64,000 bases of DNA, taken from positions 38,628 through 102,627 of the IMG/VR virus record IMGVR_UViG_3300032304_002264; one strand, given 5' to 3'. This document shows positions 37,580 through 57,152 of this stretch, one piece after another. This stretch comes from a virus. The notes under the pieces were generated by a model, which did no database searches, was not told the origin of the DNA, and saw only the letters and a list, made by a program, of their open reading frames with translations. How positions within the stretch are numbered: the stretch's first letter is position 1; each line of letters begins with the position of its first letter. The position numbers and the translations under genes were made by a program.

Positions 37580-38713
37580 ATGGCAAAATTAACAGCATCC
37601 CAAGACGTATCCGAATTCTTAGCTTCAGCCAACAAGGTTGATGCTAGGGGCGTTCTTGGTGCTGTAGAAACAGAAGATTTGATTAGTATGACATTAGTTA
37701 CCGCTGCTAATGATACTGTTAAAGGCTACGTCGGGAATATCGGCGCTCTGGCTTTTTACAGTCAATCGACTTTAAAAGGATTGTCGTTAGGATCGAGTGT
37801 CACTTCGATTGGAATGTATGCGTTCCGATACAATACTGGTTTTACAGGCTCTTTAACTATTCCCAATTCAGTGACTACAATAGGAAGCTATGCGTTCGAT
37901 GGCTGCACTGGTTTCACGGGCTCTTTAACTATTGGCAATTCTGTCACTACGATTGGAAGCAGCGCGTTTTATGATTGCAATTTTACAGGAGCTTTAACGA
38001 TTCCCAATTCCGTTACTTCGATTGGAAGCGATGCGTTTCAATATTGTTCTAGTTTCACAGGCTCTTTAACGATTGGCAATTCTGTCACTACGATTGGAAG
38101 CGGCGCGTTTTACGGTTGCACTGGTTTCACTGGTTCTTTAACTATTGGCGATGCAGTGGTTTCGATTGGAAACGGCGCGTTTTACGGTTGCAATTTTACA
38201 GGTTCTTTAACTATTCCTAATTCGGTCACTTCAATTGAGACTTATGCGTTTTACGATTGCAGTGATTTTACAGGTTCTTTGACTATTCCCAATTCCGTTA
38301 CTTCAATAGCAAGCTATGCGTTCATCAATTGCACTGGTTTTAATGGATCTTTAACTATTGGCGATGCAGTGGTTTCGATTGGAAACGGCGCGTTCCAAAG
38401 CTGCAATGGTTTCATTGGTTCTTTAACTATTGGCAATTCGGTCACTTCGATTGGGGACAATGCTTTCCAATTCTGCTCTGGTTTAACGGGAACTTTAACC
38501 ATTGGCAACTCAATTGGCAGTATTGGCGATTATGCATTTAAAGACTGTTCTTCTATAACAGTAGTTAATATTTTAGCTACCTCTGCACCAACTATTGGAC
38601 CACAAGCATTCTATAATATGACTGCCGTTAGCCCAGCAGAAATTCATGTCCCTGTCGGAGCTACTGGATACGACGCAAGTTATAATGGACTAACCGTCGT
38701 TTACGACCTCTAA
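37580..38713 (+). CDS. BspA-type (LRR_5) leucine-rich repeat protein 1
   Basis: about 11 repeats of LTIxNSVTSIGxxAFxxCxGFTGS. Confidence 0.9.
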   Translation: MAKLTASQDVSEFLASANKVDARGVLGAVETEDLISMTLVTAANDTVKGYVGNIGALAFYSQSTLKGLSLGSSVTSIGMYAFRYNTGFTGSLTIPNSVTTIGSYAFDGCTGFTGSLTIGNSVTTIGSSAFYDCNFTGALTIPNSVTSIGSDAFQYCSSFTGSLTIGNSVTTIGSGAFYGCTGFTGSLTIGDAVVSIGNGAFYGCNFTGSLTIPNSVTSIETYAFYDCSDFTGSLTIPNSVTSIASYAFINCTGFNGSLTIGDAVVSIGNGAFQSCNGFIGSLTIGNSVTSIGDNAFQFCSGLTGTLTIGNSIGSIGDYAFKDCSSITVVNILATSAPTIGPQAFYNMTAVSPAEIHVPVGATGYDASYNGLTVVYDL

Positions 38714-38717
38714 TCAA

Positions 38718-39494
38718 ATGGCTAAATTAACAGCATCACAAGACATCTCTGAATTCCTAGCTTCCGCCAACAAAGCTGAAGCCGTAGGAGTTCTTGAAGC
38801 TATCAAAACAGAAAACCTACTTGCTTCAACGCTAATCGTCCAAAGCGATGACACGGTAAAAGCGTATCTTGAGAGTATTGGTGATGAGGCTTTTATGGGT
38901 CAATCGACTTTAAAAGGCTTGTCGTTAGGATCGAGCGTCGTTTCGATTGGACAGGATGCGTTTCGAGACTGCTCTGGTTTCGCAGGTTCTTTAAACATTC
39001 CTAATTCAGTGACTTCAATAGCAAGCTATGCGTTCATCAATTGCACTGGTTTTAATGGATCTTTAACTATCGGGAATTCAGTGACTACGATTGGAAGCTT
39101 TGGGTTCTATCGTTGCGGTTTTACAGGCTCTTTAACTATTCCAAATTCAGTCATTTCGATTGGAGAAGGAGTGTTCCAAGACAGCGATGGTTTTAATGGA
39201 TCATTAACCATTGGAAATTCAGTCGCTGCCATCGCAGCCCTCGCTTTCCAAAACTGCAATGGTCTGACAGGATCTTTGAGTATTCCAAATTCGGTCACTG
39301 GCATTGGGTTTGGTGCATTCGGCAACTGCGCTGGTTTCTCACGAATCAATATAAATCGTTTTACCGCGCCGACCATCGGTGCAGTTGCGTTTGATAACTG
39401 CACAGGAGTATCTCCAGCAGTTATCCACGTTCCATCTGGCGCGAGTGGCTACGCCGCAAGTTATGATGGACTAACCGTCGTTTACGACCTCTAA
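38718..39494 (+). CDS. BspA-type LRR protein 2
   Basis: same repeat; same MAKLTASQD N-terminus and GLTVVYDL C-terminus as protein 1. Confidence 0.9.
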   Translation: MAKLTASQDISEFLASANKAEAVGVLEAIKTENLLASTLIVQSDDTVKAYLESIGDEAFMGQSTLKGLSLGSSVVSIGQDAFRDCSGFAGSLNIPNSVTSIASYAFINCTGFNGSLTIGNSVTTIGSFGFYRCGFTGSLTIPNSVISIGEGVFQDSDGFNGSLTIGNSVAAIAALAFQNCNGLTGSLSIPNSVTGIGFGAFGNCAGFSRININRFTAPTIGAVAFDNCTGVSPAVIHVPSGASGYAASYDGLTVVYDL

Positions 39495-39498
39495 TCAA

Positions 39499-40569
39499 AT
39501 GGCCAAATTAACAACATCACAAGACATCTCCGAATTCTTAGCCTCAACCAATAAGGTCGAGGCTCTAGAAGCTCTTGAATTACCACTAACAAAAGATCTT
39601 GTTGGCATCACTCTAATTGCTGATGCATCCGACAATATAAAAGGATATGTTGGGGATATTGGTAGTGGCGCTTTTAACTACCAAGGAACATTGAAAGGTT
39701 TGTCATTAGGATCTAGCGTCACTACGATTGGAAACACTGCGTTCGAAGGATGCAGTGGTTTAACAGGATCTTTAACTATTGGTAATTCAGTCACTTCGAT
39801 TGGAGACTATGCGTTCTCCTTTTGCTTTGGTTTTACAGGATCTTTAACTATTGGTAATTCAGTCACTTCGATTGGAGACTATGCGTTCCGCAATTGCAGT
39901 GGCTTTACAGGAACTTTAAATATTGGCAATTCTGTCTCTTCGATTGGAGACTATGCGTTCCACAATTGCAGTGGCTTTACAGGAACTTTAAATATTGGCA
40001 ATTCTGTCTCTTCGATTGGAAGTTATGCGTTTTATACGGGAACAGATAACTTCAGCGATTTGATTCTAGGTTCTGGTTTAGTTACCATAGGCGACCGAGC
40101 TTTTAGTGGACAGTCTTTTACAGCCTCCATGCCATCTTTTAACAGTGTAACTAGTATTGGCAGTTATGCGTTTACTTATCCACAGTTTGCGGGTGTATTG
40201 AACCTGCCGTTGATAGAGACCATAGGCAATAACGCTTTTTATGCAGCAGCAAACATTACCTCCATCAACTTTGGAAATAGCCTGACCTCTATTGGAGACA
40301 GCGCATTCAGCGGTTGCTCTGGCTTAACAGGGTCTTTAACAATTCCGAGTTCAGTTACAAGTATCGGTAATAATGCGTTTGGAAATTGCGTTGGTTTAAC
40401 CAATGTCAATTGTAGGACTACTCTCACTGTTCTTGACAATACGAGTGCCTTATCAGGAACTAGTGTAACAACTATTCACGCTCTCACTAGTGATGCTACA
40501 TGGACTGCTGGTGCAGGTCAAACAATCGGAGGAAAAACAGAAATAACTGTAATAAAAGACCTAACATAA
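39499..40569 (+). CDS. BspA-type LRR protein 3
   Basis: same repeat family and N-terminus. Confidence 0.9.
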   Translation: MAKLTTSQDISEFLASTNKVEALEALELPLTKDLVGITLIADASDNIKGYVGDIGSGAFNYQGTLKGLSLGSSVTTIGNTAFEGCSGLTGSLTIGNSVTSIGDYAFSFCFGFTGSLTIGNSVTSIGDYAFRNCSGFTGTLNIGNSVSSIGDYAFHNCSGFTGTLNIGNSVSSIGSYAFYTGTDNFSDLILGSGLVTIGDRAFSGQSFTASMPSFNSVTSIGSYAFTYPQFAGVLNLPLIETIGNNAFYAAANITSINFGNSLTSIGDSAFSGCSGLTGSLTIPSSVTSIGNNAFGNCVGLTNVNCRTTLTVLDNTSALSGTSVTTIHALTSDATWTAGAGQTIGGKTEITVIKDLT

Positions 40570-46081: not shown

Positions 46082-46822
46082 TTACCTATTTACAACCAAC
46101 CCTACGATATCACAGCACGATTTCTTTTCTACGCTCAGGCAAATTCGATAGATTCTATCTATTTTCTGAACATCCAAAACGCGGATTTCTCGCTTGTGCA
46201 TGAATGCGTAGTCTGTCATTCTTTTGATAACCAAATCAATGTATTTATCTTTGTCGTTTAAAGAAACGCCCCAGAACGCATCAAGATGTCTTATTGTGAT
46301 TTTATTCATTTGCGCCACGCCTATCATCGGTAGAGTCACAAATAAAACACCTTTGTCAATCAGTGAAAAAACATGAGGAAAATATCTGCTGGGCATTCCG
46401 TATGGATCAAGGTCGATGATATCATACTTACGCTTATTGGCGACCAAGCTATAAAGTTCTTTTTCGCTGTCTCCGTGTATAGCAGTTACGCCTTCCATTT
46501 CTAAACTGTTGATAAACTCGACTCTATCTTTTTTGATATCGTAACACTCGACTTTGCCTATTTGATTATAAAATTCAGTCATGCCGCCAAAGCCCGAATT
46601 TGTTTCTAAAATATTATTGCCAGCGGCGGAGAGATACTTTTCCGCCTGTTGAATTTTTTCGGCGGTGTGTTTGTAGCGATCTTCATTCGCGCTCTGCTTT
46701 AACCGTCTGACTTTATGCTTAACGCTGGTGGCGCTGGTCCCTATCTCCGCCGCGATTTCTTCGTAAGTCCTTCCAGACTCTCTCATTTCCAAAACGCTTG
46801 CTTCCAGCTTTTTATTCCACAT
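46082..46822 (-). CDS. HTH fused to SAM-dependent methyltransferase
   Basis: N-terminal HTH (TYEEIAAEIGTS); ILETNSGFGG; YDIIDLDPYG. Confidence 0.7.
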   Translation of the reverse strand: MWNKKLEASVLEMRESGRTYEEIAAEIGTSATSVKHKVRRLKQSANEDRYKHTAEKIQQAEKYLSAAGNNILETNSGFGGMTEFYNQIGKVECYDIKKDRVEFINSLEMEGVTAIHGDSEKELYSLVANKRKYDIIDLDPYGMPSRYFPHVFSLIDKGVLFVTLPMIGVAQMNKITIRHLDAFWGVSLNDKDKYIDLVIKRMTDYAFMHKREIRVLDVQKIDRIYRICLSVEKKSCCDIVGLVVNR

Positions 46823-46863
46823 AATACTTGGACGAACATACCGCAAAAAAAGGCGTTGTCAAT

Positions 46864-49785: not shown

Positions 49786-49792
49786 ATGAAAA

Positions 49793-49867
49793 TGGATGCC
49801 CAACAGAGAGTCCCACTCTGATTTCTCCCATACCAAGGGAGCGTGTCTAGTTTTACACTTTTGGGCA
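49793..49867 (-). tRNA. tRNA-Thr(GGU), atypical T-loop
   Basis: ctccc-TTGGTAT-gggag; T-loop TGGGACT; CCA. Confidence 0.8.
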
Positions 49868-49876
49868 ATTGAAAAT

Positions 49877-49959
49877 TGGTAGCCGTAGAGAGACTTGAAC
49901 TCTCAATCCCGAAGGCGACAAGGCTTAAACTTGTAGTGTATGCATTCCACCATACGGCC
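49877..49959 (-). tRNA. tRNA-Leu(UAA)
   Basis: acaag-TTTAAGC-cttgt; variable arm; CCA. Confidence 0.88.
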
Positions 49960-49960
49960 A

Positions 49961-50752
49961 TTAAAGATTATAAAATTTCATCCACTTACGAATTGAATTA
50001 TCTGATACTTGGTATTTTCTACCAATAGCGCAAAAGTTACCATCCAACTCTTCGAAATCTTTTTCTAGTTGTTGTTTTGGAGGTCTTCTTGAAAAGAAAG
50101 ACGATTGATAAATTCGGGCGCACGATTTACATCTATCAGCAACCTTAGAAATCTCTTTTTTACAATCTATACATAAATTTGGTGGGGTAAGAGAGACTCC
50201 AACTCTCATGCTTTTTAAAGCGTCTGGTTCTAAGCCAGATGTGTATAGCGTTCCACCATTACCCCCAGAATTACCCCAAGTTTCTGTCTGTTGATGACAG
50301 TTGGGGCAAATTATTCTTAAATTTTCTAAACGGTTATCGTTTGGTTTTCCGTTAATGTGGTCAACATGAAGTCTGATAGGATTATTTAACCATTCGGTTA
50401 TTCCGCAAATAGCACAAGTATTTTTATAACCCATTTTTAAAAGTTTGGGGAGCAATCGACTATGTTGACTGTAAGGAGAATTTTCTTTGAAAATTTCTTC
50501 ATTAGAAAAGGAATTTTTAGCTACGTTAGCGGCTACTTTAGAACAAGATTCCGCCGTTTTCCCTTTAGCCCAATTCTGACCTAGAAAATGATCGGTTGGG
50601 ATTCTATATTCTAAAATCCGAAATTGAATTAGCCTAAAGTTTCCTCCAGTCATTTTCAACCCTAGTTTTTTAATAACCTCTGAGAATGATAGACTAGATT
50701 CTACTAGGGGAGTCAAAGACTCTTTTGTATGTTTTCTTTTTCTTTGTTTCAC
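49961..50752 (-). CDS. HNH endonuclease with C-terminal Zn finger and HTH
   Basis: CAICG..HVDHING..NDNRLENLRIICPNCH; CIDC..RCKSC; AIGRKYQVSDNSIRKW; likely GTG start. Confidence 0.85.
   Translation of the reverse strand: MKQRKRKHTKESLTPLVESSLSFSEVIKKLGLKMTGGNFRLIQFRILEYRIPTDHFLGQNWAKGKTAESCSKVAANVAKNSFSNEEIFKENSPYSQHSRLLPKLLKMGYKNTCAICGITEWLNNPIRLHVDHINGKPNDNRLENLRIICPNCHQQTETWGNSGGNGGTLYTSGLEPDALKSMRVGVSLTPPNLCIDCKKEISKVADRCKSCARIYQSSFFSRRPPKQQLEKDFEELDGNFCAIGRKYQVSDNSIRKWMKFYNL
50180..50265 (-). tRNA. tRNA-Leu(UAG), nested inside the HNH ORF
   Basis: ggggtaa/ttacccc acceptor; tctgg-CTTAGAA-ccaga; variable arm; ACCA. Confidence 0.85.
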
Positions 50753-50806
50753 ATAAATCTTTACAGATAAAGTGGTAAAGGGGAGAATTATACTTTGAAA
50801 TTTTGT

Positions 50807-50882
50807 TGGTGCGAATAGAAAGATTTGAACTTTCACTGTATTGGCTCTCGACCAATTATCTCTGCCGTTGGATTATATTCGC
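50807..50882 (-). tRNA. tRNA with GAG (Leu) anticodon, short variable loop, C33
   Basis: attgg-TCGAGAG-ccaat; CCA. Confidence 0.75.
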
Positions 50883-50890
50883 ATAAAAAA

Positions 50891-50965
50891 TGGCGGTTCA
50901 TAGGGGGAACGATCCCCTTCCTCAAGATTGACAATCTAGTGATGCTACCTTTACACTAATGAACC
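50891..50965 (-). tRNA. tRNA-Asp(GUC)
   Basis: loop TTGTCAA; G73; CCA. Confidence 0.82.
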
Positions 50966-50974
50966 ATAAAATAA

Positions 50975-51184
50975 CAGACGGCATAATCCGAAGACCGCTA
51001 ACACTTCACAGTCCTTTCGAACTCCATGCTTCGCGCCGTTATCGCTGCTGTTCCAGCGGGGATTTACCCACAGTGTTTTGCGGGAGTAACTCCGCTTCAA
51101 TCGTAGGTTCTATTTCCTCCTACTAGCCATTTACTAGATGGCATGGTTCTTAGTATCCCGCGAATCCAATATAATCGTCTTCGG
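50975..51184 (-). ncRNA. unidentified multi-helix structured RNA
   Basis: CCGAAGAC/GTCTTCGG closing helix and at least 5 internal hairpins. Confidence 0.5.
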
Positions 51185-51323
51185 GAACTTCTACAATATT
51201 AAAAGCTACTACAAATTTTCCATCAATGATACCTTTAACTTTGAAGCTGTATTCTTGATTGGCCGATTCAAGGCAATCATTTAAAAGATCAGTGAGAATT
51301 CCTATTTTTTCGTCTTCGTCCAT
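51150..51323 (-). CDS. small acidic protein (57 aa) within the tRNA array
   Basis: MDEDEKIGILTDLLNDCLE...IGFAGY*. Confidence 0.45.
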   Translation of the reverse strand: MDEDEKIGILTDLLNDCLESANQEYSFKVKGIIDGKFVVAFNIVEVPEDDYIGFAGY

Positions 51324-51340
51324 ATTTGTTATGTTAAAAT

Positions 51341-51417
51341 TGTGCGCCAGAGTTGGATTCGAACCAACACCCTATTTCCTTCACGGAAGTCTTGCTACCA
51401 TTACACTATCCGAACGC
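51341..51417 (-). ncRNA. tRNA-like element with aberrant anticodon arm and no CCA
   Basis: canonical D and T arms; ttcc-gtgaa-ggaa arm; bulged acceptor. Confidence 0.55.
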
Positions 51418-51426
51418 ATTGAAAAT

Positions 51427-51501
51427 TGGTAGGGGATCACAGAATCGAACTGTATTCTTAGGAATGTAAAACCTCTGCATCACACTTAATGCTTATCCCC
51501 C
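51427..51501 (-). tRNA. tRNA-Val(UAC)
   Basis: loop TTTACAT with weak stem; CCA. Confidence 0.75.
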
Positions 51502-51514
51502 GTTTGAAAATTAA

Positions 51515-51713
51515 TTAGTAAATGCTAGTCGCTACTCTAGCTAGAAATGAAGTGTGTCTCATCAATGGGATATTACCATTTGCTTGCCATGCACGGCTCT
51601 TCTCTTCGGTCAGTTGTATATTATACTCACAAGTTTTTTCTCGGTGCATCTCCTTACATGTTTTCTGCAACAACGATATTCCTGCGTGTCTGCTTTCCAC
51701 GCCGATTTACTAA
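51515..51713 (-). ncRNA. about 200-nt tRNA-like RNA with a greatly enlarged anticodon-position domain
   Basis: 9-bp terminal helix; D-like arm GCGTG-GAAAGCAGA-CACGC; T-like arm GCTAG-AGTAGCGA-CTAGC. Confidence 0.6.
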
Positions 51714-51716
51714 AAC

Positions 51717-51790
51717 TGGACACACCTATGGGTAACTCTCCCATTTAGCTAGTTTTGCAGACTAGAGCCTCAATTTTCGGCCAAGGTGTG
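51717..51790 (-). tRNA. tRNA-Cys(GCA), atypical T-loop
   Basis: ctagt-CTGCAAA-actag; U73; CCA. Confidence 0.85.
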
Positions 51791-51797
51791 ATGAAAT

Positions 51798-51871
51798 TGG
51801 TGGAAATACAGAAACTCGAATTCTGACTAAAAGAGTGCAAATCTTTTGTGCTACCATTACACTATATCCCC
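51798..51871 (-). tRNA. tRNA-Ala(UGC)
   Basis: G3:U70; aaaga-TTTGCAC-tcttt; CCA. Confidence 0.9.
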
Positions 51872-51879
51872 ATTGAAAT

Positions 51880-51955
51880 TGGTAGTCCGTCCCCGTATTG
51901 ATCGGGGTATCTCCCGTTTATCGAACGGGTGCAGTTACCAGCTTGCTCACGGACT
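51880..51955 (-). tRNA. tRNA-Ile(GAU), C33
   Basis: cccgt-TCGATAA-acggg; CCA. Confidence 0.82.
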
Positions 51956-51965
51956 ATTTGAAAAT

Positions 51966-52088
51966 TGGAGCGGCGGCGGATCGTCACTTCCGCCTTGCTA
52001 GGGACTCCGAAATACCCCGTGATCTCCTTCTTCTAGGACATTCCGAGATTTAATGTCTTTTAATTCGGGTTTCTTTTGACTATGCCGC
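51966..52088 (-). ncRNA. expanded tRNA-like RNA with Gly-type acceptor and CCA
   Basis: GCGGC/GCCGC-TCCA acceptor; T-like arm; no canonical anticodon loop. Confidence 0.55.
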
Positions 52089-52097
52089 ATTGTAAAT

Positions 52098-52177
52098 TGG
52101 TGAGCCAGAGAGGAGTCAAACCTCCATGCATTCAATTATCCTTTCAACTCGTTCGTAGCGAGAGGGAATACTGACCC
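52098..52177 (-). tRNA. D-armless tRNA-Arg(ACG)-like RNA
   Basis: ctcg-CTACGAA-cgag; 8-nt D replacement; 22-nt variable region; CCA. Confidence 0.65.
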
Positions 52178-52190
52178 ATGTTATAAAATT

Positions 52191-52266
52191 TGGTGGGGGC
52201 GACGGGAATCCAACCCGCTATCAACCGTTTATGAGACGGTGGCATCTGGCATACTGCTCCACCCCG
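52191..52266 (-). tRNA. tRNA(CAU), Met or Ile2
   Basis: accgt-CTCATAA-acggt; CCA. Confidence 0.8.
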
Positions 52267-52280
52267 ATTAAATACTCAAA

Positions 52281-52355
52281 GTCCGCGAGGTCAGGGTTGA
52301 ACTGACATTATACTCTTTCACAAAGAGGACTTTTACCATTAAAGTTACCCACGGA
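52281..52355 (-). tRNA. tRNA-His(GUG), 8-bp acceptor, CCA not encoded
   Basis: ctct-TTGTGAA-agag. Confidence 0.75.
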
Positions 52356-52365
52356 TGAAAATAAA

Positions 52366-52518
52366 TCCCCACTACCGAGATTCACAGAGGTAAGATATCT
52401 CTAAGAGCGACCAAAGCCTTACTTACTTGTGTCGGATTACGAATACAGACATTGACGGAGCAACCGTGTATTCCTGTATCACGCTCATATTAGTTCTTTT
52501 GGTCTAATATGGCGGGGA
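52366..52518 (-). ncRNA. unidentified structured RNA
   Basis: TCCCCGC/GTGGGGA closing helix; CATATTAG/CTAATATG hairpin. Confidence 0.5.
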
Positions 52519-52522
52519 AAAT

Positions 52523-52606
52523 TGGTGCAGATGGCGAGATTTGAACTCGCGTGTGGTATTCCTCATTGGAAGTGAGGCGCAATCGACCAAGCTATGCGAC
52601 ATCTGC
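52523..52606 (-). tRNA. tRNA-Gly(UCC), 10-nt variable region
   Basis: cctca-CTTCCAA-tgagg; CCA. Confidence 0.85.
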
Positions 52607-52616
52607 TTTAAAATAG

Positions 52617-52728
52617 TTTGATTAGTTGGATTCCTTACTCATGGATAGAAGACTCACAAATGAAGTGGCAATGCATTGCGTTCATAGGTTCCAACGTGGA
52701 TGATACACGCCTTACGGTCTAATCAAAA
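52617..52728 (-). ncRNA. unidentified structured RNA
   Basis: TTTGATTAG/CTAATCAAA 9-bp closing helix with internal stems. Confidence 0.5.
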
Positions 52729-52729
52729 A

Positions 52730-52804
52730 TGGCCCCAACTAGAGGTATCGAGCCTCTCTTTCGAATTTTTCAGATTCGCGCTAATCCGTCTCAGCTAAGT
52801 TGGG
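52730..52804 (-). tRNA. tRNA-Phe(GAA)
   Basis: cgaat-CTGAAAA-attcg; CCA; 5' end overlaps the HNH stop region. Confidence 0.85.
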
Positions 52805-53365
52805 ATGATGAAATGTTCCATGACAATTAGGACAAAGATATTCTAAATTGTCTATTGTGTTATTTGTGGGGTCTTCGTCTTTATGGTGGATATGCAATAA
52901 AATTAAATTCCCCATCCAGTGTGACAAGCCACAACATTGACAACGATATTCTCTACCAGCACGATCTAAAGCTGCTTTCAACGCTGGCCTTCTTAATCTT
53001 TTCTTTTGTTCAACTGACTTAGCAAACAATTTGTTAGCTGTGGCTTGCCCTCCTAACGAACGGCTGTTTTCTTTGCCGTCTTTAAAAAAGACTCCCAATT
53101 GATTTAATCTTTTTTTATAGTGAAAAAATGAACCTCCAGATGTTTTTAATCCGAGATTTCTCAAACACTCATTCATATAAGAGCTTTTAGCTGCCGCTTC
53201 TAATAATTGTTGATCGGAAATTTTATGTTTGCATCTTCCAAAAGTTTTTAGCTTAAATTTCCGCAGCCAATAACGAGTTGTGCCAATAGGCATATTTAAG
53301 GCTTCTGCAATTTCTTTAATTGTTTTCCCTTCGGAAATATATTGTTGGAGTATTTTTTGTTCCAT
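52781..53365 (-). CDS. HTH fused to HNH endonuclease
   Basis: TIKEIAEAL HTH; CQCCG..HIHHKD..NN..DNLEYLCPNCH; GTGTAA 8 nt upstream. Confidence 0.85.
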   Translation of the reverse strand: MEQKILQQYISEGKTIKEIAEALNMPIGTTRYWLRKFKLKTFGRCKHKISDQQLLEAAAKSSYMNECLRNLGLKTSGGSFFHYKKRLNQLGVFFKDGKENSRSLGGQATANKLFAKSVEQKKRLRRPALKAALDRAGREYRCQCCGLSHWMGNLILLHIHHKDEDPTNNTIDNLEYLCPNCHGTFHHPNLAETD

Positions 53366-53446
53366 ACCCCTTTTTACACGAAAAGAGTAAAGCGGGGAAC
53401 AATATGCAAGCGCAATGTCTCCAGACCTGCCCACAAGCGTAAAAAT

Positions 53447-53523
53447 TGGTGACTCATGTAGGATTCAAACCTACAACCTAGACGGTAGAAACATCTTGCT
53501 CTATTCGATTGAGCTAATGAGCC
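53447..53523 (-). tRNA. tRNA-Arg(UCU)
   Basis: agatg-TTTCTAC-cgtct; CCA. Confidence 0.87.
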
Positions 53524-53531
53524 TTTGAAAA

Positions 53532-53606
53532 TGGCTGGCCATTTAGGATTCGAACCTAACTAAATCTCCTTAACAGGGAGGTGTCGCGCCTAGCGACCTA
53601 TGGCCA
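53532..53606 (-). tRNA. tRNA-Asn(GUU)
   Basis: ctcc-CTGTTAA-ggag; G73; CCA. Confidence 0.87.
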
Positions 53607-53614
53607 TTTGAAAA

Positions 53615-53689
53615 TGGTCAGGGTTTGGGGTAACGATCCCCATTCTACTCGTTAAAAGCAAGTTGCTTCACCATTAAAGCTTAACCCCG
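53615..53689 (-). tRNA. tRNA-Lys(UUU)
   Basis: acttg-CTTTTAA-cgagt; CCA. Confidence 0.85.
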
Positions 53690-53698
53690 TTTGAAAAT

Positions 53699-53769
53699 TG
53701 GATACCTTTGGGGATTCTAGCCCCTCTTCTACGCCCATGCGTAGTATGCTGTCATTACATCATCAGGTA
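53699..53769 (-). ncRNA. tRNA-like element with shortened anticodon loop
   Basis: D and T arms and CCA present; ctacgc-ATGG-gcgtag arm. Confidence 0.55.
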
Positions 53770-53772
53770 AGA

Positions 53773-53851
53773 TGGCCCACACAGGTCGGAATTGAACCGA
53801 CTATTTAACTGGATTTGGAGTTCAGTTGCAACCGCCACTTGCTGCTGCGGG
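53773..53851 (-). tRNA. tRNA-Trp(CCA), bulged acceptor
   Basis: loop CTCCAAA; CCA end. Confidence 0.75.
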
Positions 53852-53859
53852 ATGAAAAT

Positions 53860-53933
53860 TGGAAGCCCCGCCCAGAATCGAACTGGATTAAGTATGTTCA
53901 AAGCATACGGCCTTACCAATAGGCTACGGGGCA
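53860..53933 (-). tRNA. tRNA-Gln(UUG)
   Basis: gtatg-CTTTGAA-catac; CCA. Confidence 0.87.
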
Positions 53934-53940
53934 ATTAAAA

Positions 53941-54032
53941 TGGCGGAAGATAAAAGGATCGAACTCTCACCCGTGGATCACACGCATGGCACAGTTTTCG
54001 AGACTGCTTGACCTCCATTGGTCGCTACCTCC
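53941..54032 (-). tRNA. tRNA-Ser(CGA)
   Basis: gcagt-CTCGAAA-actgt; long variable arm; G73; CCA. Confidence 0.87.
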
Positions 54033-54046
54033 CATATAAAGAAAAA

Positions 54047-54240
54047 CAAATCAAAAGTGCGTTGTTACACCAAAGGGGTTACTATTTCTAGTCCTATGAA
54101 ACGTAATTCACAATCATCGCAGCACCTTTTGCAAGGGTGTATGTCTTCTTGGAATTATATACATACGAATTACCTCTTCTCTACGTCTAGTCCCATTCTT
54201 TAAAAGGTGGCTACTTCTAAGCCTACTTCCTTTTGATCTG
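54047..54240 (-). ncRNA. mimic of the 23S rRNA GTPase-associated centre (H43/H44, L11 site) with an insert of about 125 nt
   Basis: GGAAGUAGGCUUAGAAGUAGCCACCUUUUAAAGA ... GUGUAACAACGCACU inside an 11-bp closing helix. Confidence 0.8.
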
Positions 54241-54244
54241 AAAA

Positions 54245-54327
54245 TGGTGTGAGTCTGAGGTTTCGATCCTCGCCCCGAAGGAGAAGTTTTACAGACTTCT
54301 TGCTAGAGCCACTAGCTTTAGACTCAC
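54245..54327 (-). tRNA. tRNA-Tyr(GUA), apparent 8/4 acceptor/T-stem
   Basis: gaagt-CTGTAAA-acttc; GTGAGTCT/AGACTCAC acceptor; CCA. Confidence 0.8.
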
Positions 54328-54341
54328 ATAAAAAAGAAAGA

Positions 54342-54420
54342 GACGCGCTGTTTTACCTGACTAAACTACAATGCAGTATTATCTCCGCACCAGCGGACTT
54401 CGAACCCGCCTCTTCGCATC
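54342..54420 (-). ncRNA. circularly permuted tRNA mimic (YrlA-like), copy B
   Basis: order T arm, looped acceptor, D arm; closed by GATGCG/CGCGTC. Confidence 0.65.
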
Positions 54421-54430
54421 AAAATAAATA

Positions 54431-54498
54431 GGGGTATTCTGCCACTGAACTACCCAGAGATTGGAGCCTCTGAGACGGAATCGAACCGATGCCTCCCC
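54431..54498 (-). ncRNA. circularly permuted tRNA mimic (YrlA-like), copy A
   Basis: GGTTCGATTCC, CTCAGAG-loop-CTCTGGG, TAGTTCAGTGGCAGAA; closed by GGGG/CCCC. Confidence 0.7.
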
Positions 54499-54511
54499 AA
54501 CATTTGTAAAA

Positions 54512-54567
54512 TGGTCGCTCCCCGTCATCGACTCATAAAATCGACTTCGCTGGCCAGCAGGGGAGCG
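54512..54567 (-). ncRNA. 56-nt mini-RNA with 8-bp acceptor-like stem and ACCA end
   Basis: CGCTCCCC/GGGGAGCG-ACCA enclosing two small hairpins. Confidence 0.55.
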
Positions 54568-54593
54568 TTTGTTTTTTATGCTGGCATTAGAAA

Positions 54594-54670
54594 TGGTAGG
54601 AACGGAGAGGGTCGAACTCTCACTGATACAAGGAATGAGCTTGTGCAACACCAATATTGCTTGCGTTCCA
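54594..54670 (-). tRNA. tRNA(CAU) with U1:U72 mismatch and U37
   Basis: acaag-CTCATTC-cttgt; CCA. Confidence 0.75.
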
Positions 54671-54677
54671 ATTGAAA

Positions 54678-54702
54678 TGGTTGCGGACTAAAGACTCGAA
54701 TC
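54678..54702 (-). pseudogene. orphan tRNA 3' end (T-loop to CGCAACCA)
   Basis: GATTCGAGTCTTTAGTCCGCAACCA abutting the promoter of the endonuclease gene. Confidence 0.65.
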
Positions 54703-54717
54703 AGTGTAAAAGTATTT

Positions 54718-55677
54718 ATGCAATACAATAAAGACCAATACGAGACAAAAAAGCACCGCGAAATGATAGACTGCATCTGTGACGAATGTGGTTCTGAGTG
54801 TCAGAGACGAAAGAGAGATATTAGAATATCAATTGGCCGAAATCAGGAAAAGCTTTTTTGCTCAAAAGAATGTTCTGCCAAACACTCGCGATCCGAAGAG
54901 AGAAATAACCACTCAGGCGAATGCAAAAACTGTGGAAAAGAAGTAACCTACCCAAACTTGTTTTGTTCGTCTTCTTGTTCTGCTATCTATACCAACCAAT
55001 TTAAATTGAAAAGGGGCAAAATAGTGTCGTGTCATGGATGCGGAGAAGATTGCTATAAGGAACCAAATCAGCTACGAGATAATATTAGTGGGTTACACTT
55101 TTGCAGTCGTGATTGCAGCGACAAATTTAAGGTAAACAAAGCGGCTCGTCAAAATAGAGATATCACATGTTCTCAATGTTTATCTGATTTCCAAAGATAT
55201 TCGACCCAAAAGAGTAAGCACGGCAAAGAGTTTTGTTCTCGTTCTTGTAGAATGAAATATTTCAATATACATCACAAGATTAATGAAGGTTCGGGAGCCA
55301 GCGTTAGTTATCCAGAAGAATATTTGAATGACCGACTGGCCACTTCGTTTCAAGACTTAGAAATTTCCAGAAATAATAGAACCTTTCTTGAATGTGGTTA
55401 TGAAATGGATTTTTTCTTTCCTAATCTTAACTTCGCTATCGAAGTGAACGGCCCAATTCATTATATGCCTATTTTCGGAGAGACTCGTTTGGATAATGTC
55501 CAAGCTAAGGACTTAACAAAATATGCTGAAATGAATCACAAGGGCATCTCTTTTCTTATAATCGACGTAAGACAAAGTATGAGTAAAAAGAAAATGGCAA
55601 TGTATTTGGACGGACTTTTTGTTGATAAAATCCAACCTATTATAGAAAGCAAATTGCGCCGCCTAGATTCGAACTAG
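54718..55677 (+). CDS. multi-Zn-finger, Vsr/DUF559-like endonuclease, antisense in the array
   Basis: four CxxC...FCSxxC units; EMDFFF..FAIEVNGPIHY...KD. Confidence 0.8.
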   Translation: MQYNKDQYETKKHREMIDCICDECGSECQRRKRDIRISIGRNQEKLFCSKECSAKHSRSEERNNHSGECKNCGKEVTYPNLFCSSSCSAIYTNQFKLKRGKIVSCHGCGEDCYKEPNQLRDNISGLHFCSRDCSDKFKVNKAARQNRDITCSQCLSDFQRYSTQKSKHGKEFCSRSCRMKYFNIHHKINEGSGASVSYPEEYLNDRLATSFQDLEISRNNRTFLECGYEMDFFFPNLNFAIEVNGPIHYMPIFGETRLDNVQAKDLTKYAEMNHKGISFLIIDVRQSMSKKKMAMYLDGLFVDKIQPIIESKLRRLDSN

Positions 55678-55739
55678 GAACAGGATTTAACCTTTCTCCA
55701 ACTTATGAGGATGGCATGTTACCATTACACTACGGCACG
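55654..55739 (-). tRNA. initiator-like tRNA(CAU), C1:A72, long variable arm, no CCA
   Basis: ccatc-CTCATAA-gttgg; TTCGAAT; overlaps the endonuclease 3' end. Confidence 0.7.
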
Positions 55740-55752
55740 ATTTGAAAATGAA

Positions 55753-55907
55753 TCAGCTATACCCTTTGACCGAGGGGGCGTATTGTTGTCTCAAAGTTTG
55801 GTATATCCATCCCAAACCGCATGGCGGCTCCTTAAATAACTTCTTCCTCCTCTTGGATAGAATGAGGAAATAGATGGAGAAGTTACGACAACATTAACTC
55901 TAGCTGA
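55753..55907 (-). ncRNA. unidentified structured RNA
   Basis: nested helices TCAGCTA/TAGCTGA, TGTTGTC/GACAACA, TAACTTCT/AGAAGTTA. Confidence 0.55.
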
Positions 55908-55911
55908 AAAT

Positions 55912-56021
55912 TGATCCCCAACCATCCACCTTCTCAGTTGGTAGGAATTTGGCCGCTTGCGGCGACCTTACCTATTTGAACGCCTAATCGTCATTAGACT
56001 GGGTGGTTCTGACTGTTGGGA
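55912..56021 (-). ncRNA. unidentified structured RNA
   Basis: CCCAAC/GTTGGG closing helix; GGTCGC-cgcaa-GCGGCC hairpin. Confidence 0.5.
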
Positions 56022-56025
56022 AAAT

Positions 56026-56102
56026 TGGTTAGGCATGTGGAATTTGAATCCACAATCTCTACATCCCAAATGTAGCGCGATACCAAGTTACGCTAATGCC
56101 TA
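56026..56102 (-). tRNA. tRNA-Pro(UGG)
   Basis: ctaca-TTTGGGA-tgtag; CCA. Confidence 0.88.
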
Positions 56103-56110
56103 ATTGAAAT

Positions 56111-56185
56111 TGGTCATGCATACGGGGGACGATCCCGTAGTCTCTTGAGTGAAAGTCAAGCGTGTTACCATTACACTAATGCATG
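56111..56185 (-). tRNA. tRNA-Glu(UUC)
   Basis: cttga-CTTTCAC-tcaag; CCA. Confidence 0.87.
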
Positions 56186-56281
56186 TTTGAAAATTTATCC
56201 GCTGACCAACCCAACCCGAATCCTGAGACTCAAGGGCAAAGTTAGCCTTCTGGCGAGCGGAATGTCGCCAAAGAATTTTTC

Positions 56282-56576: not shown

Positions 56577-57152
56577 TTAAAAAACATTTTTCAAGAAATT
56601 GTTCCATTCAGGACGAATAACTGGAGCGTTCAACATTAACGCTGGAATCGGTGTCGGCTTGGGAACTTGCCCGTTTTTGTCATACCAAGGTGTTATATTG
56701 CTTTTTTCACGATTACATTTGATACAACAAAGCGCAAAATTTTCGTGTTCATTTTTTCCTCCTAAACTTTTCGGGTAAATATGGTCAATACTTAACTGTT
56801 TCAAAGGAAATTTCTCAAAACAATACTGGCAAGTGTATTCGCACAGCTTGGCAAGATCAAACAAAGTGAGCTTTTTCTTTTTCGGCTTTCTAAAGAATTT
56901 ACTGTTTACAACAATCACAGTAGGAATCGGCCATCCAGCGTGTGCGCTTCTTAGGAACGGCTGATCGTCATAATACGCTGCCAAACTGTTCCAAGTGTCG
57001 AGAGAATGAAAGACATTGCTATCCTTATCCAACGCTGAAATTCGACGCTTGTGCAAGTGGCTGAATGCTGCCCGTGCGGTGACAACTGTAATTGGTTGCC
57101 ATGCATTGTTTAAAAGCAAGGTCGTTTTAGTGTTTGCGGTTACTGCGTTCAT
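56577..57152 (-). CDS. HNH endonuclease (McrA-like)
   Basis: LLLNNAWQP, CQYC, SIDHIYPKSLGG, CCIKCNREK. Confidence 0.88.
   Translation of the reverse strand: MNAVTANTKTTLLLNNAWQPITVVTARAAFSHLHKRRISALDKDSNVFHSLDTWNSLAAYYDDQPFLRSAHAGWPIPTVIVVNSKFFRKPKKKKLTLFDLAKLCEYTCQYCFEKFPLKQLSIDHIYPKSLGGKNEHENFALCCIKCNREKSNITPWYDKNGQVPKPTPIPALMLNAPVIRPEWNNFLKNVF

Follow-up and report, generated by a model that had tools for sequence, protein, structure and literature searches.

A copy of the ribosomal GTPase-associated centre encoded among phage tRNA genes, and its apparently undescribed RNA family

The leaders of ribosomal protein operons, such as those of L10 and L1, imitate rRNA binding sites; they are cis-regulatory 5′ untranslated regions and loose mimics. 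Phages, for their part, often carry large structured RNAs near tRNA genes, GOLLD and ROOL, whose function is unknown and which are not known to resemble rRNA, and the arrays of tRNAs that many phages encode are usually read as devices for codon supply or against host defences. The GTPase-associated centre (GAC) of 23S rRNA, where uL11 binds and contact is made with the translational GTPases, has been studied in great detail: crystal structures of GAC RNA with L11 exist, and the activation of RelA depends on uL11. An isolated RNA spanning 1051-1108 is reported to be a high-affinity uL11 site (PMC1802607), and the ToxI-like pseudo-antitoxin of phage PhiTE is reported to be a phage RNA that acts as a decoy (PMC3475682). 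Here we describe an element of about 195 nt that copies the GAC and lies between two tRNA genes of an uncultured freshwater phage, in a stretch of 64,000 nt (positions 38,628 to 102,627 of IMG/VR record IMGVR_UViG_3300032304_002264) that we call the window.

The element occupies positions 54047-54240 of the window, on the minus strand. Read along that strand, it consists of one strand of a helix, a 34-nt stretch, an insert, a 16-nt stretch, and the second strand of the helix. When compared with the E. coli reference (the 23S gene rrlH of strain K-12, our locus L121), the 5′ stretch shares 29 of its 34 bases with 23S 1055-1088, and 11 of the 16 bases in the 3′ stretch agree with 1090-1105. The closing helix has 11 bp, ten of them Watson-Crick pairs and one G.U, and directly flanks G1055 and C1104. 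A preliminary description, made from the sequence alone, had recognized this arrangement of an 11-bp helix enclosing two halves of 23S 1055-1105 separated by some 125 nt, and the arrangement is borne out, the insert being exactly 125 nt long. Every substitution that it named can be seen in the element (A1058-U1080, A1061, and U1072 with U1092-A1099); the A1067 and A1095 loops are intact, as it had said, and U1060/A1088 is also unchanged. The sequence strings that it quoted for the helix and the core overlap by 1-2 bases. Its statement that no rRNA flanks the element holds as well: in the 64 kb, Rfam finds only tRNAs at the gathering score, with no match to large-subunit (LSU) rRNA (RF02541), and in 53900-54400 there is nothing at E<=10, LSU rRNA included.

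How widespread is such an element? Viral contigs were scanned for a 15-base core of H43, which gave at least 120 loci. None of the loci listed is an rRNA gene, and about half of them are chance or coding matches. In the remaining loci the 5′ part of the ribosomal domain is complete, and 70-300 nt downstream there is a 3′ half resembling H44, together with a complement of the locus's own 5′ flank. A covariance model, the route that the preliminary description had proposed, was then built from nine other phage loci as seed, the window being left out. In the window this model (R1) finds a single match, 54045-54242 on the minus strand, over its full length (model positions 1-149), with 79.4 bits and E 2e-20, the E-values of R1 being rough because its calibration was shortened; the match is far beyond chance. 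R1 also detects the authentic E. coli site (L121:1102-1175, equal to 23S 1043-1116) with 50.7 bits and E 2e-12, and since one model matches both, the element is related to the phage family and to the ribosomal domain alike. Among the 120 viral loci listed, 58 match with at least 30 bits, nine of the 58 being the seed.

The family extends to bacterial genomes and to cultured phages. Species-representative bacterial genomes contain an 18-mer specific to the family at 57 loci, 31 of which are confirmed by R1; these 31 belong to Bacillota, Bacteroidota, Pseudomonadota, Bdellovibrionota, Chloroflexota and others, isolates included, and the unconfirmed loci are about as many as chance would give for 17 fixed bases in that collection. 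When the 49-nt 5′ half was searched against INPHARED with blastn, carriers were found among phages of Pseudomonas (pf16, Astolliot, Milchi and UNO-G1W1), together with Aeromonas phage 4_4572, a Vibrio phage and Paenibacillus phage Pd_22F, and among jumbo phages (GAP32, CBB, Serratia BF, several Erwinia phages, XbC2, XacN1 and Yersinia fHe-Yen9-04). The same search also hit real 23S contamination in short records; R1 confirms all five phage records tested, at 45.0-87.5 bits. Most INPHARED matches have no annotated feature beneath them, and the element is unannotated in the five cultured-phage records examined. Near-complete carrier genomes hold a single copy in 14/15 cases and two copies in one.

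A blastn search with the 501 nt around it gave no match in INPHARED at E 1e-5, and megablast with 20 kb of the window returned only a 66-nt match. Rfam has nothing on the element in the window and nothing significant in 20 family loci; the entries that touch family loci do so far below the gathering score (DUF805b at L064, 21.3 bits; RNase P beside L004, 15.6 bits). No description of such a phage RNA was found in the full-text literature, a search whose coverage stops short of subscription-only papers and supplements. The element thus belongs to a large, widespread and apparently undescribed family of phage RNAs, and its presence in phages of many bacterial phyla fits a universal target.

The fold of the ribosomal domain is kept along with its sequence. 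A canonical H44 is present in 48 loci, and 29 of these were aligned with the window to give 30 sequences; the other 19, with inserts above about 200 nt, near-duplicates or variants, were dropped before counting. A structure of 23 pairs is paired in 91.0% of cells vs 65.4 +/- 1.3% in shuffles, and its covariation score is 0.664 vs 0.173; neither value is reached in any of 500 shuffles, and slid controls do not exceed 0.18. Changes on both sides of a pair are seen in all ten pairs of the closing helix, in 4/4 pairs of the helix that closes the insert (P-ins), and in two of the three at the base of H43, and there are compensatory changes at 1058-1080 in H43. In a second alignment, that of the subfamily of the window (17 rows, described below), seven of nine closing-helix pairs have changes on both sides, and compensatory changes appear in upper H43, at 1062-1076 and 1064-1074, in three rows each; these were invisible in the first scan because its pattern fixed those bases. 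The filter on the loci demanded that 1091-1100 and 1092-1099 be pairable, so neither of these can count as independent evidence; selection made no use of the remaining helices.

The tertiary signatures point the same way. In the ribosome, C1072 contacts C1092 and G1099 (PMC2952862). In the phage family, position 1072 tracks the 1092-1099 pair in 48/48 loci, 42 having C with C-G and six having U with U-A, and the filter had asked for any standard pair at 1092-1099, not a particular one. The window has U1072 with U1092-A1099, a switch to U.U-A that we take to be a known covariant of this triple in rRNAs. The rule also holds in 17/17 rows of the subfamily (3 C.C-G, 14 U.U-A), which was collected through a motif in the insert and is therefore unbiased for the core. 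Positions 1060/1088 are U/A in 30/30 sequences of the larger alignment, and 1082/1086 are UA in 17, CG in nine, AU in two and unpaired in two. Positions 1090/1101 are G.A in 29/30 family members and G.G in the window, while E. coli 23S has A and U.

Some traits set the family apart from rRNA. The UUUGG lead-in to H44, A1101 and the helix-closed insert are absent from the three 23S sequences examined; being common to members from unrelated sources, they suggest one origin, not repeated capture. The window has the closed insert and the lead-in (P-ins as GGG/CCC, then UUU and GG), with AAAGAAU where the family consensus is AAAGAGU. A single example allows a copy to be compared with the 23S of its own host: the prophage copy in Flintibacter muris DSM 110149 differs from the host 23S at variable positions and does not have the host's extra base near 1078-1081. 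The view of the preliminary description that the element is a selected rRNA mimic, and not debris, is strongly supported by the compensatory changes in the helices and the triple, by independent assemblies, and by the setting in tRNA arrays.

The insert deserves separate attention, as it proved to be structured in its own right. An earlier 17-mer from the insert had found only one relative among viral contigs, and an 18-mer led to 29 metagenome loci, 18 with an R1 match. The subfamily alignment consists of the window, the viral locus L122 and 15 of these 18; L207, L214 (cut by contig end) and L222 (a weak partial match) were left out. Its structure of 51 pairs is paired in 97.7% of cells vs 89.8% in shuffles, with 18 pairs changed on both sides vs 8.4 +/- 1.8, a number reached in 0/500 shuffles; slid controls give at most 0.053 vs 0.245 for the structure. 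The insert contributes seven helices, five of them with changes on both sides, and its GNRA-capped hairpins are lengthened or swapped among the relatives. RNAalifold proposed for the subfamily a pairing of CAUAGG with the 3′ strand of P-ins. This pairing was rejected and P-ins plus P2 preferred, since covariation of P-ins extends throughout the family and both helices show compensatory changes in the subfamily. In the DNA run X2, one relative seems to lack 70 nt of the insert (54081 to 54152), but one side of this junction is backed by only 21 nt, too little to rely on.

The insert is, then, a covarying multi-helix domain specific to this subfamily. The suggestion that it may be a second domain is supported for the subfamily. 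In the family as a whole the length of the insert varies and the insert is sometimes absent: it measures 37-162 nt in the 30 aligned members and more than 200 nt in others, with no motif common to all, and it is missing from compact members, among them Pd_22F of Paenibacillus (74 nt, 59.2 bits) and L025. In some members (L009, L037, L055, L064, L084, L115, L116) there is a second insertion point, with a hairpin after 1077 in the 3′ strand of H43. Since the inserts vary and the ribosomal copy is constant, the latter is presumably the functional part.

The genomic setting is that of a tRNA. With default settings, ARAGORN finds 20 tRNAs in the window, all on the minus strand, between 49487 and 56185. 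The tRNA-Tyr and tRNA-Ser that the preliminary description had placed on either side of the element are indeed there, on the same strand and 4 and 13 nt away, at a relaxed ARAGORN threshold; four tRNAs were missed by default ARAGORN and by Rfam, so the array has at least 24-25 tRNAs, not 20. The motif AUUUUCA recurs at the boundaries of units, usually as the terminal A of CCA, UUUUCA and then the next gene, and at the element it is made of the terminal A of tRNA-Tyr, the UUUU spacer and the first CA of the element. On the minus strand there are 15 such sites within 49787-56194 vs 12 in the remaining ~57 kb, and the motif may be a processing signal or a spacer signature. The element fills a tRNA-like slot in the array; scans for a promoter or terminator of its own gave none above chance level.

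This association is general in the family. A tRNA lies within the fetched flank of 29/60 family-like loci vs 0/60 non-family loci from the same scan, and in all 29 the tRNA reads as co-oriented with the element. Many elements lie within a few bases of tRNAs on one or both sides (e.g., L016, L146 and L183). The identity of the neighbouring tRNA differs even among close relatives, which makes the element an independent module. In phage pf16 (L225) it lies between tRNA-Asn and tRNA-Pro, and that array adjoins a gene annotated as tRNA amidotransferase. The elements of GAP32 and XacN1 have no tRNA within 700 nt; that of XacN1 (L227) directly follows a gene annotated as 2′-5′ RNA ligase. The neighbours in pf16 and XacN1 are thus both genes for the repair or modification of RNA.

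As for the rest of the window, the genes around the array are those of a large tailed phage and include a DNA polymerase, a primase-helicase, a Lon-like protease, a relative of tail protein J, and ThyX. Open reading frames (ORFs) resembling HNH or homing endonucleases are scattered through the array, and one of these lies on the opposite strand and has a zf-FCS motif. Other gaps of the array fold into end-paired structures that are not tRNAs (52355-52522, 52607-52729, 53690-53772 and 55741-56025, minus strand, with z of -2.7, -0.5, -2.0 and -3.2, respectively, vs mononucleotide shuffles), and these four have no Rfam match at the gathering score. Just beyond the array, an ORF at 46082-46846 (minus strand) combines a weak Pfam match to TRM, a tRNA m2,2G methyltransferase, with a helix-turn-helix like that of sigma-70 region 4; judging from these matches, its product may be an RNA-modifying enzyme. 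Farther away, at 37580-40569 (plus strand), there are three paralogous ORFs in tandem (377, 258 and 356 aa), each with matches to phrog_35892 and phrog_18805, for which no function is assigned.

Is the element present as RNA? The 1.5-kb stretch around it is found mainly in freshwater metagenomes, and in three metatranscriptome runs (X16, X17 and X19, listed under three studies of the same year, perhaps from a single campaign) there is a contig on the element, each with one difference. What these contigs cover is limited to structured RNA genes, and this is supportive, as it fits a stable RNA better than carry-over of DNA; the uncovered parts of the 1.5-kb stretch carry no weight by themselves. 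The same runs contain RNA contigs of high depth (to ~2000) over 54196-54231, which were considered as further copies of the element and rejected, as they continue into genuine 23S. Their match to the element is confined to 33-36 bases and contains 2-3 differences; they represent the rRNAs of other organisms and illustrate how close the mimic is to the real ribosomal site. The parts of the element and its surroundings are collected in Table 1.

Table 1. Parts of the element, its neighbours in the tRNA array, and RNA contigs that cover it (window coordinates; rRNA numbering of E. coli 23S)
Feature	Position	Strand	Remarks or basis
Closing helix, 5′ strand	54230-54240	minus	replaces the H42 tip; last base is G1055
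H43 equivalent (23S 1057-1081)	54204-54228	minus	holds the A1067 loop and U1072
Counterpart of the 1082-1089 junction, with one extra U	54195-54203	minus	holds U1082/A1086, G1087, A1088
Inserted domain in the H44 bulge	54075-54194	minus	subfamily alignment and pair counts
P-ins	54192-54194 with 54075-54077	minus	covaries family-wide; compensatory changes in subfamily
P2	54188-54190 with 54094-54096	minus	compensatory changes in subfamily
Helix a, long-range, 10 pairs	54167-54177 with 54099-54109	minus	subfamily alignment
Hairpin b	54139-54166	minus	inside helix a
Hairpin c, GCAA loop	54125-54136	minus	inside helix a
Small hairpin	54110-54120	minus	inside helix a
Hairpin d, GAAA loop	54081-54092	minus	subfamily alignment
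UUU linker ahead of H44	54072-54074	minus	kept across the family; alignments
H44 equivalent (1090-1103)	54058-54071	minus	A1095 loop, U1092-A1099 pair, G.G at 1090/1101
Closing helix, 3′ strand	54047-54057	minus	first base is C1104
tRNA-Tyr(GTA), CCA encoded	54245-54327	minus	adjoins the element upstream; relaxed ARAGORN threshold only
UUUU spacer	54241-54244	minus	sequence
U-rich spacer, 13 nt	54034-54046	minus	separates element and tRNA-Ser
tRNA-Ser(CGA)	53941-54033	minus	adjoins the element downstream; relaxed ARAGORN threshold only
tRNA-Ile(tat)	54386-54460	minus	relaxed ARAGORN
tRNA-Val(TAC)	54466-54539	minus	relaxed ARAGORN
HNH/homing-endonuclease-like ORF	49961-50836	minus	in array
HNH/homing-endonuclease-like ORF	52781-53434	minus	in array
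HNH/homing-endonuclease-like ORF	54718-55677	plus	in array
HNH/homing-endonuclease-like ORF	56577-57152	minus	in array
RNA contig, X16	54060-54321 (262 nt)		also spans tRNA-Tyr; nothing else of the 1.5-kb stretch covered
RNA contig, X17	54057-54221 (165 nt)		further cover: two tRNA parts only
RNA contig, X19	54091-54276 (186 nt)		nothing else of the 1.5-kb stretch covered

What might such an RNA do? The preliminary description suggested that it may titrate L11 or the L10 stalk, with dampened RelA signalling or derepressed ribosomal protein operons as the outcome, or may be a decoy for defence proteins that target ribosomes. We propose that it is a stable non-coding RNA of about 195 nt (54045-54242, minus strand), which would be transcribed together with the tRNAs and probably released by the enzymes that trim its neighbours; cleavage by RNase P at the 5′ end of tRNA-Ser, for instance, would free its 3′ end. 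The ends of the RNA would then fold into a self-closed copy of the GAC, in which a plain helix stands for H42 and is followed by H43 and H44 with their tertiary contacts, the lineage-specific domain of 125 nt being grafted into the bulge of H44. This mimic would bind host uL11 away from the ribosome. In this way uL11, or the partners of the uL11-RNA surface (RelA in its activation, or translational GTPases), would be diverted from ribosomes during infection: a lower content of uL11 on ribosomes might reduce the activation of RelA, or else the uL11-RNA surface might compete for factors.

That the element works off the ribosome as a mimic binding host uL11 is a proposal drawn from comparative sequence data, and we regard the chances for and against it as evenly balanced. 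It is consistent with the family keeping the features that build the uL11-binding fold, with the sequences of the closing helix and the insert left free. None of the 40 carrier records, 15 of them at least 90% complete, encodes uL11, so any uL11 partner would be that of the host. A more specific version, in which the trans-acting GAC copy with host uL11 serves as an off-ribosome counter-measure that silences the RelA alarm or absorbs effectors directed at this arm of the rRNA, is tentative, and we rate it as possible rather than probable.

Several points weigh against the binding of uL11 by a free RNA. (i) The RNA contigs give no strand, ends or level, and carry-over of DNA is possible. (ii) Thermodynamic folding alone fails to flag the element, whose folding energy as a single sequence is not significant (z -1.85, or -0.29 with flanks). 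(iii) The insertion in the bulge of H44 and the purine-purine combination at 1090/1101 could change the surface seen by the protein. (iv) In 11/16 distinct relatives of the subfamily (L122, L197-L200, L205, L209, L210, L215, L216 and L220), G1087 is replaced by A and there is an extra A in the 3′ strand, with loss of the G1087-C1102 pair; the window retains this pair. (v) Cells probably contain little free uL11, which makes it doubtful what a sponge would gain. (vi) No co-occurring protein gene points to a pathway.

Other explanations can be weighed against the same data. Perhaps the RNA acts as a decoy substrate or soaks up an effector that attacks the GAC (for example a nuclease, a thiopeptide-like compound or an RNA ADP-ribosyltransferase resembling Tre23), and thereby spares the ribosomes that the phage needs. 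One idea about phage tRNAs is that they replace or outcompete tRNAs hit by host defences, and a decoy would be a parallel case; tRNA arrays, in which the element sits, have indeed been linked to countering attacks directed at translation. The conservation of the H44 and A1067 loops in the family agrees with this explanation, and effectors of this kind exist: Tre23 ADP-ribosylates H44 at ~1095-1098 of the 1043-1123 arm (PMC8661411). Tre23 is, however, an interbacterial toxin, and the spread of the element over many phyla favours a universal partner over a sporadic toxin. Moreover, a decoy RNA must be very abundant to rival tens of thousands of ribosomes, and we know of no anti-phage defence system directed at the GAC. 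We consider a decoy function a serious rival, if an unlikely one.

The partner could also be something other than uL11. The RNA may directly bind the uL10-bL12 stalk, EF-G or another translational GTPase, or RelA, and so derepress rplJL-rpoBC or alter the availability of factors. The fold and the loops that face the factors are conserved; EF-G is able to bind oligonucleotides of the thiostrepton domain, and L10 regulates its own synthesis through an rRNA-like leader. Yet uL10 probably needs more of H42, in place of which the element has a simple duplex whose sequence is free and which lacks a kink-turn. In addition, no equivalent of the sarcin-ricin loop was found, the loci aligning to E. coli 23S at the GAC only, and bL12 is found above cut-off in 0/40 carrier records. 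These points make direct binding of other ligands quite unlikely.

In a different explanation, the ribosomal copy is only a sturdy handle for folding or against nucleases, perhaps one that recruits uL11 as a chaperone, and the function resides in the insert, which varies among lineages. The structure of the lineage-specific inserts, with changes on both sides in 5/7 helices, and the second insertion point after 1077 in some members would suit this explanation. It is very unlikely all the same, as Pd_22F and L025 lack an insert altogether and as the inserts of 37-162 nt in 30 members share no motif, while the GAC copy is conserved.

A cis-acting role, in which the element serves the processing or spacing of the tRNA precursor and has no function of its own, is highly improbable: the tRNA-like slot bounded by AUUUUCA and the end-paired non-tRNA structures in other gaps of the array would agree with it, but it leaves unexplained why a ribosomal tertiary fold with its base triple is kept across many phyla, and why GAP32 and XacN1 carry the element with no tRNA within 700 nt. 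Lastly, captured host rRNA debris or an assembly chimera, for which the high identity to 23S across 34 nt might speak, is already refuted by the absence of flanking rRNA, by the alignments of the 120 listed viral loci to E. coli 23S, none of which is longer than 62 nt, by the identical sequence in metagenome locus L202 and one with a single change in L196, by a contig of an independent DNA run that covers 53937-54276 with four differences, by the family-specific features (UUUGG, A1101 and P-ins) common to members across phyla, and by the prophage copy that departs from the 23S of its own host.

A conserved and expressed copy of a ribosomal centre among phage tRNAs would show that phages imitate rRNA itself. 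If the RNA were indeed such an off-ribosome counter-measure with host uL11, the family would represent a new class of RNA-based factors for host takeover or anti-defence, delivered via tRNA arrays. In any case, it offers a testable handle on how phages may interfere with uL11, with the stringent response or with attacks against the GAC, and its natural variation, with two insertion sites and switches of the triple, is a mutational map of a well-studied RNA tertiary fold.

How does the element compare with the systems already described? Like the leaders of ribosomal protein operons, it is an RNA off the ribosome that copies the binding site of a ribosomal protein. Unlike them, it is a faithful copy, has no ribosomal protein gene nearby and no Rfam leader match, and its neighbours are tRNAs and HNH ORFs, so it is not the 5′ untranslated region of such a gene. 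In phage T4, the small stable RNAs rnaC and rnaD, of unknown function, lie at the end of the tRNA cluster; the element shares their setting as a non-tRNA RNA next to phage tRNAs and co-oriented with them. The fold is different, and R1, run without filters, scores no more than 5.6 bits over both, which are thus not members of the family. GOLLD and ROOL are likewise phage-borne structured RNAs adjacent to tRNAs, although they are much larger, and neither has an Rfam 15 match in the window or in 20 family loci. The decoy of PhiTE is alike in that a phage RNA poses as an RNA of the host and thereby binds one of the host's proteins, and differs in that it targets the toxin-antitoxin system of one host, whereas the molecule imitated here is a universal ribosomal domain.

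The closest relative remains the GAC of bacterial 23S rRNA itself (tip of H42, H43 and H44; E. coli 1051-1108), the domain bound by uL11 and thiostrepton, to which the element is alike in secondary structure, loops and tertiary signatures. In an LSU rRNA gene (RF02541), this domain is continuous with 23S on both sides, whereas the element has tRNAs on both sides. It also differs from the ribosomal centre in having a domain inserted at 1089/1090 and a purine-purine pair at 1090/1101, and above all in being free-standing, closed by a plain helix of arbitrary sequence, and encoded among the tRNAs of a phage.

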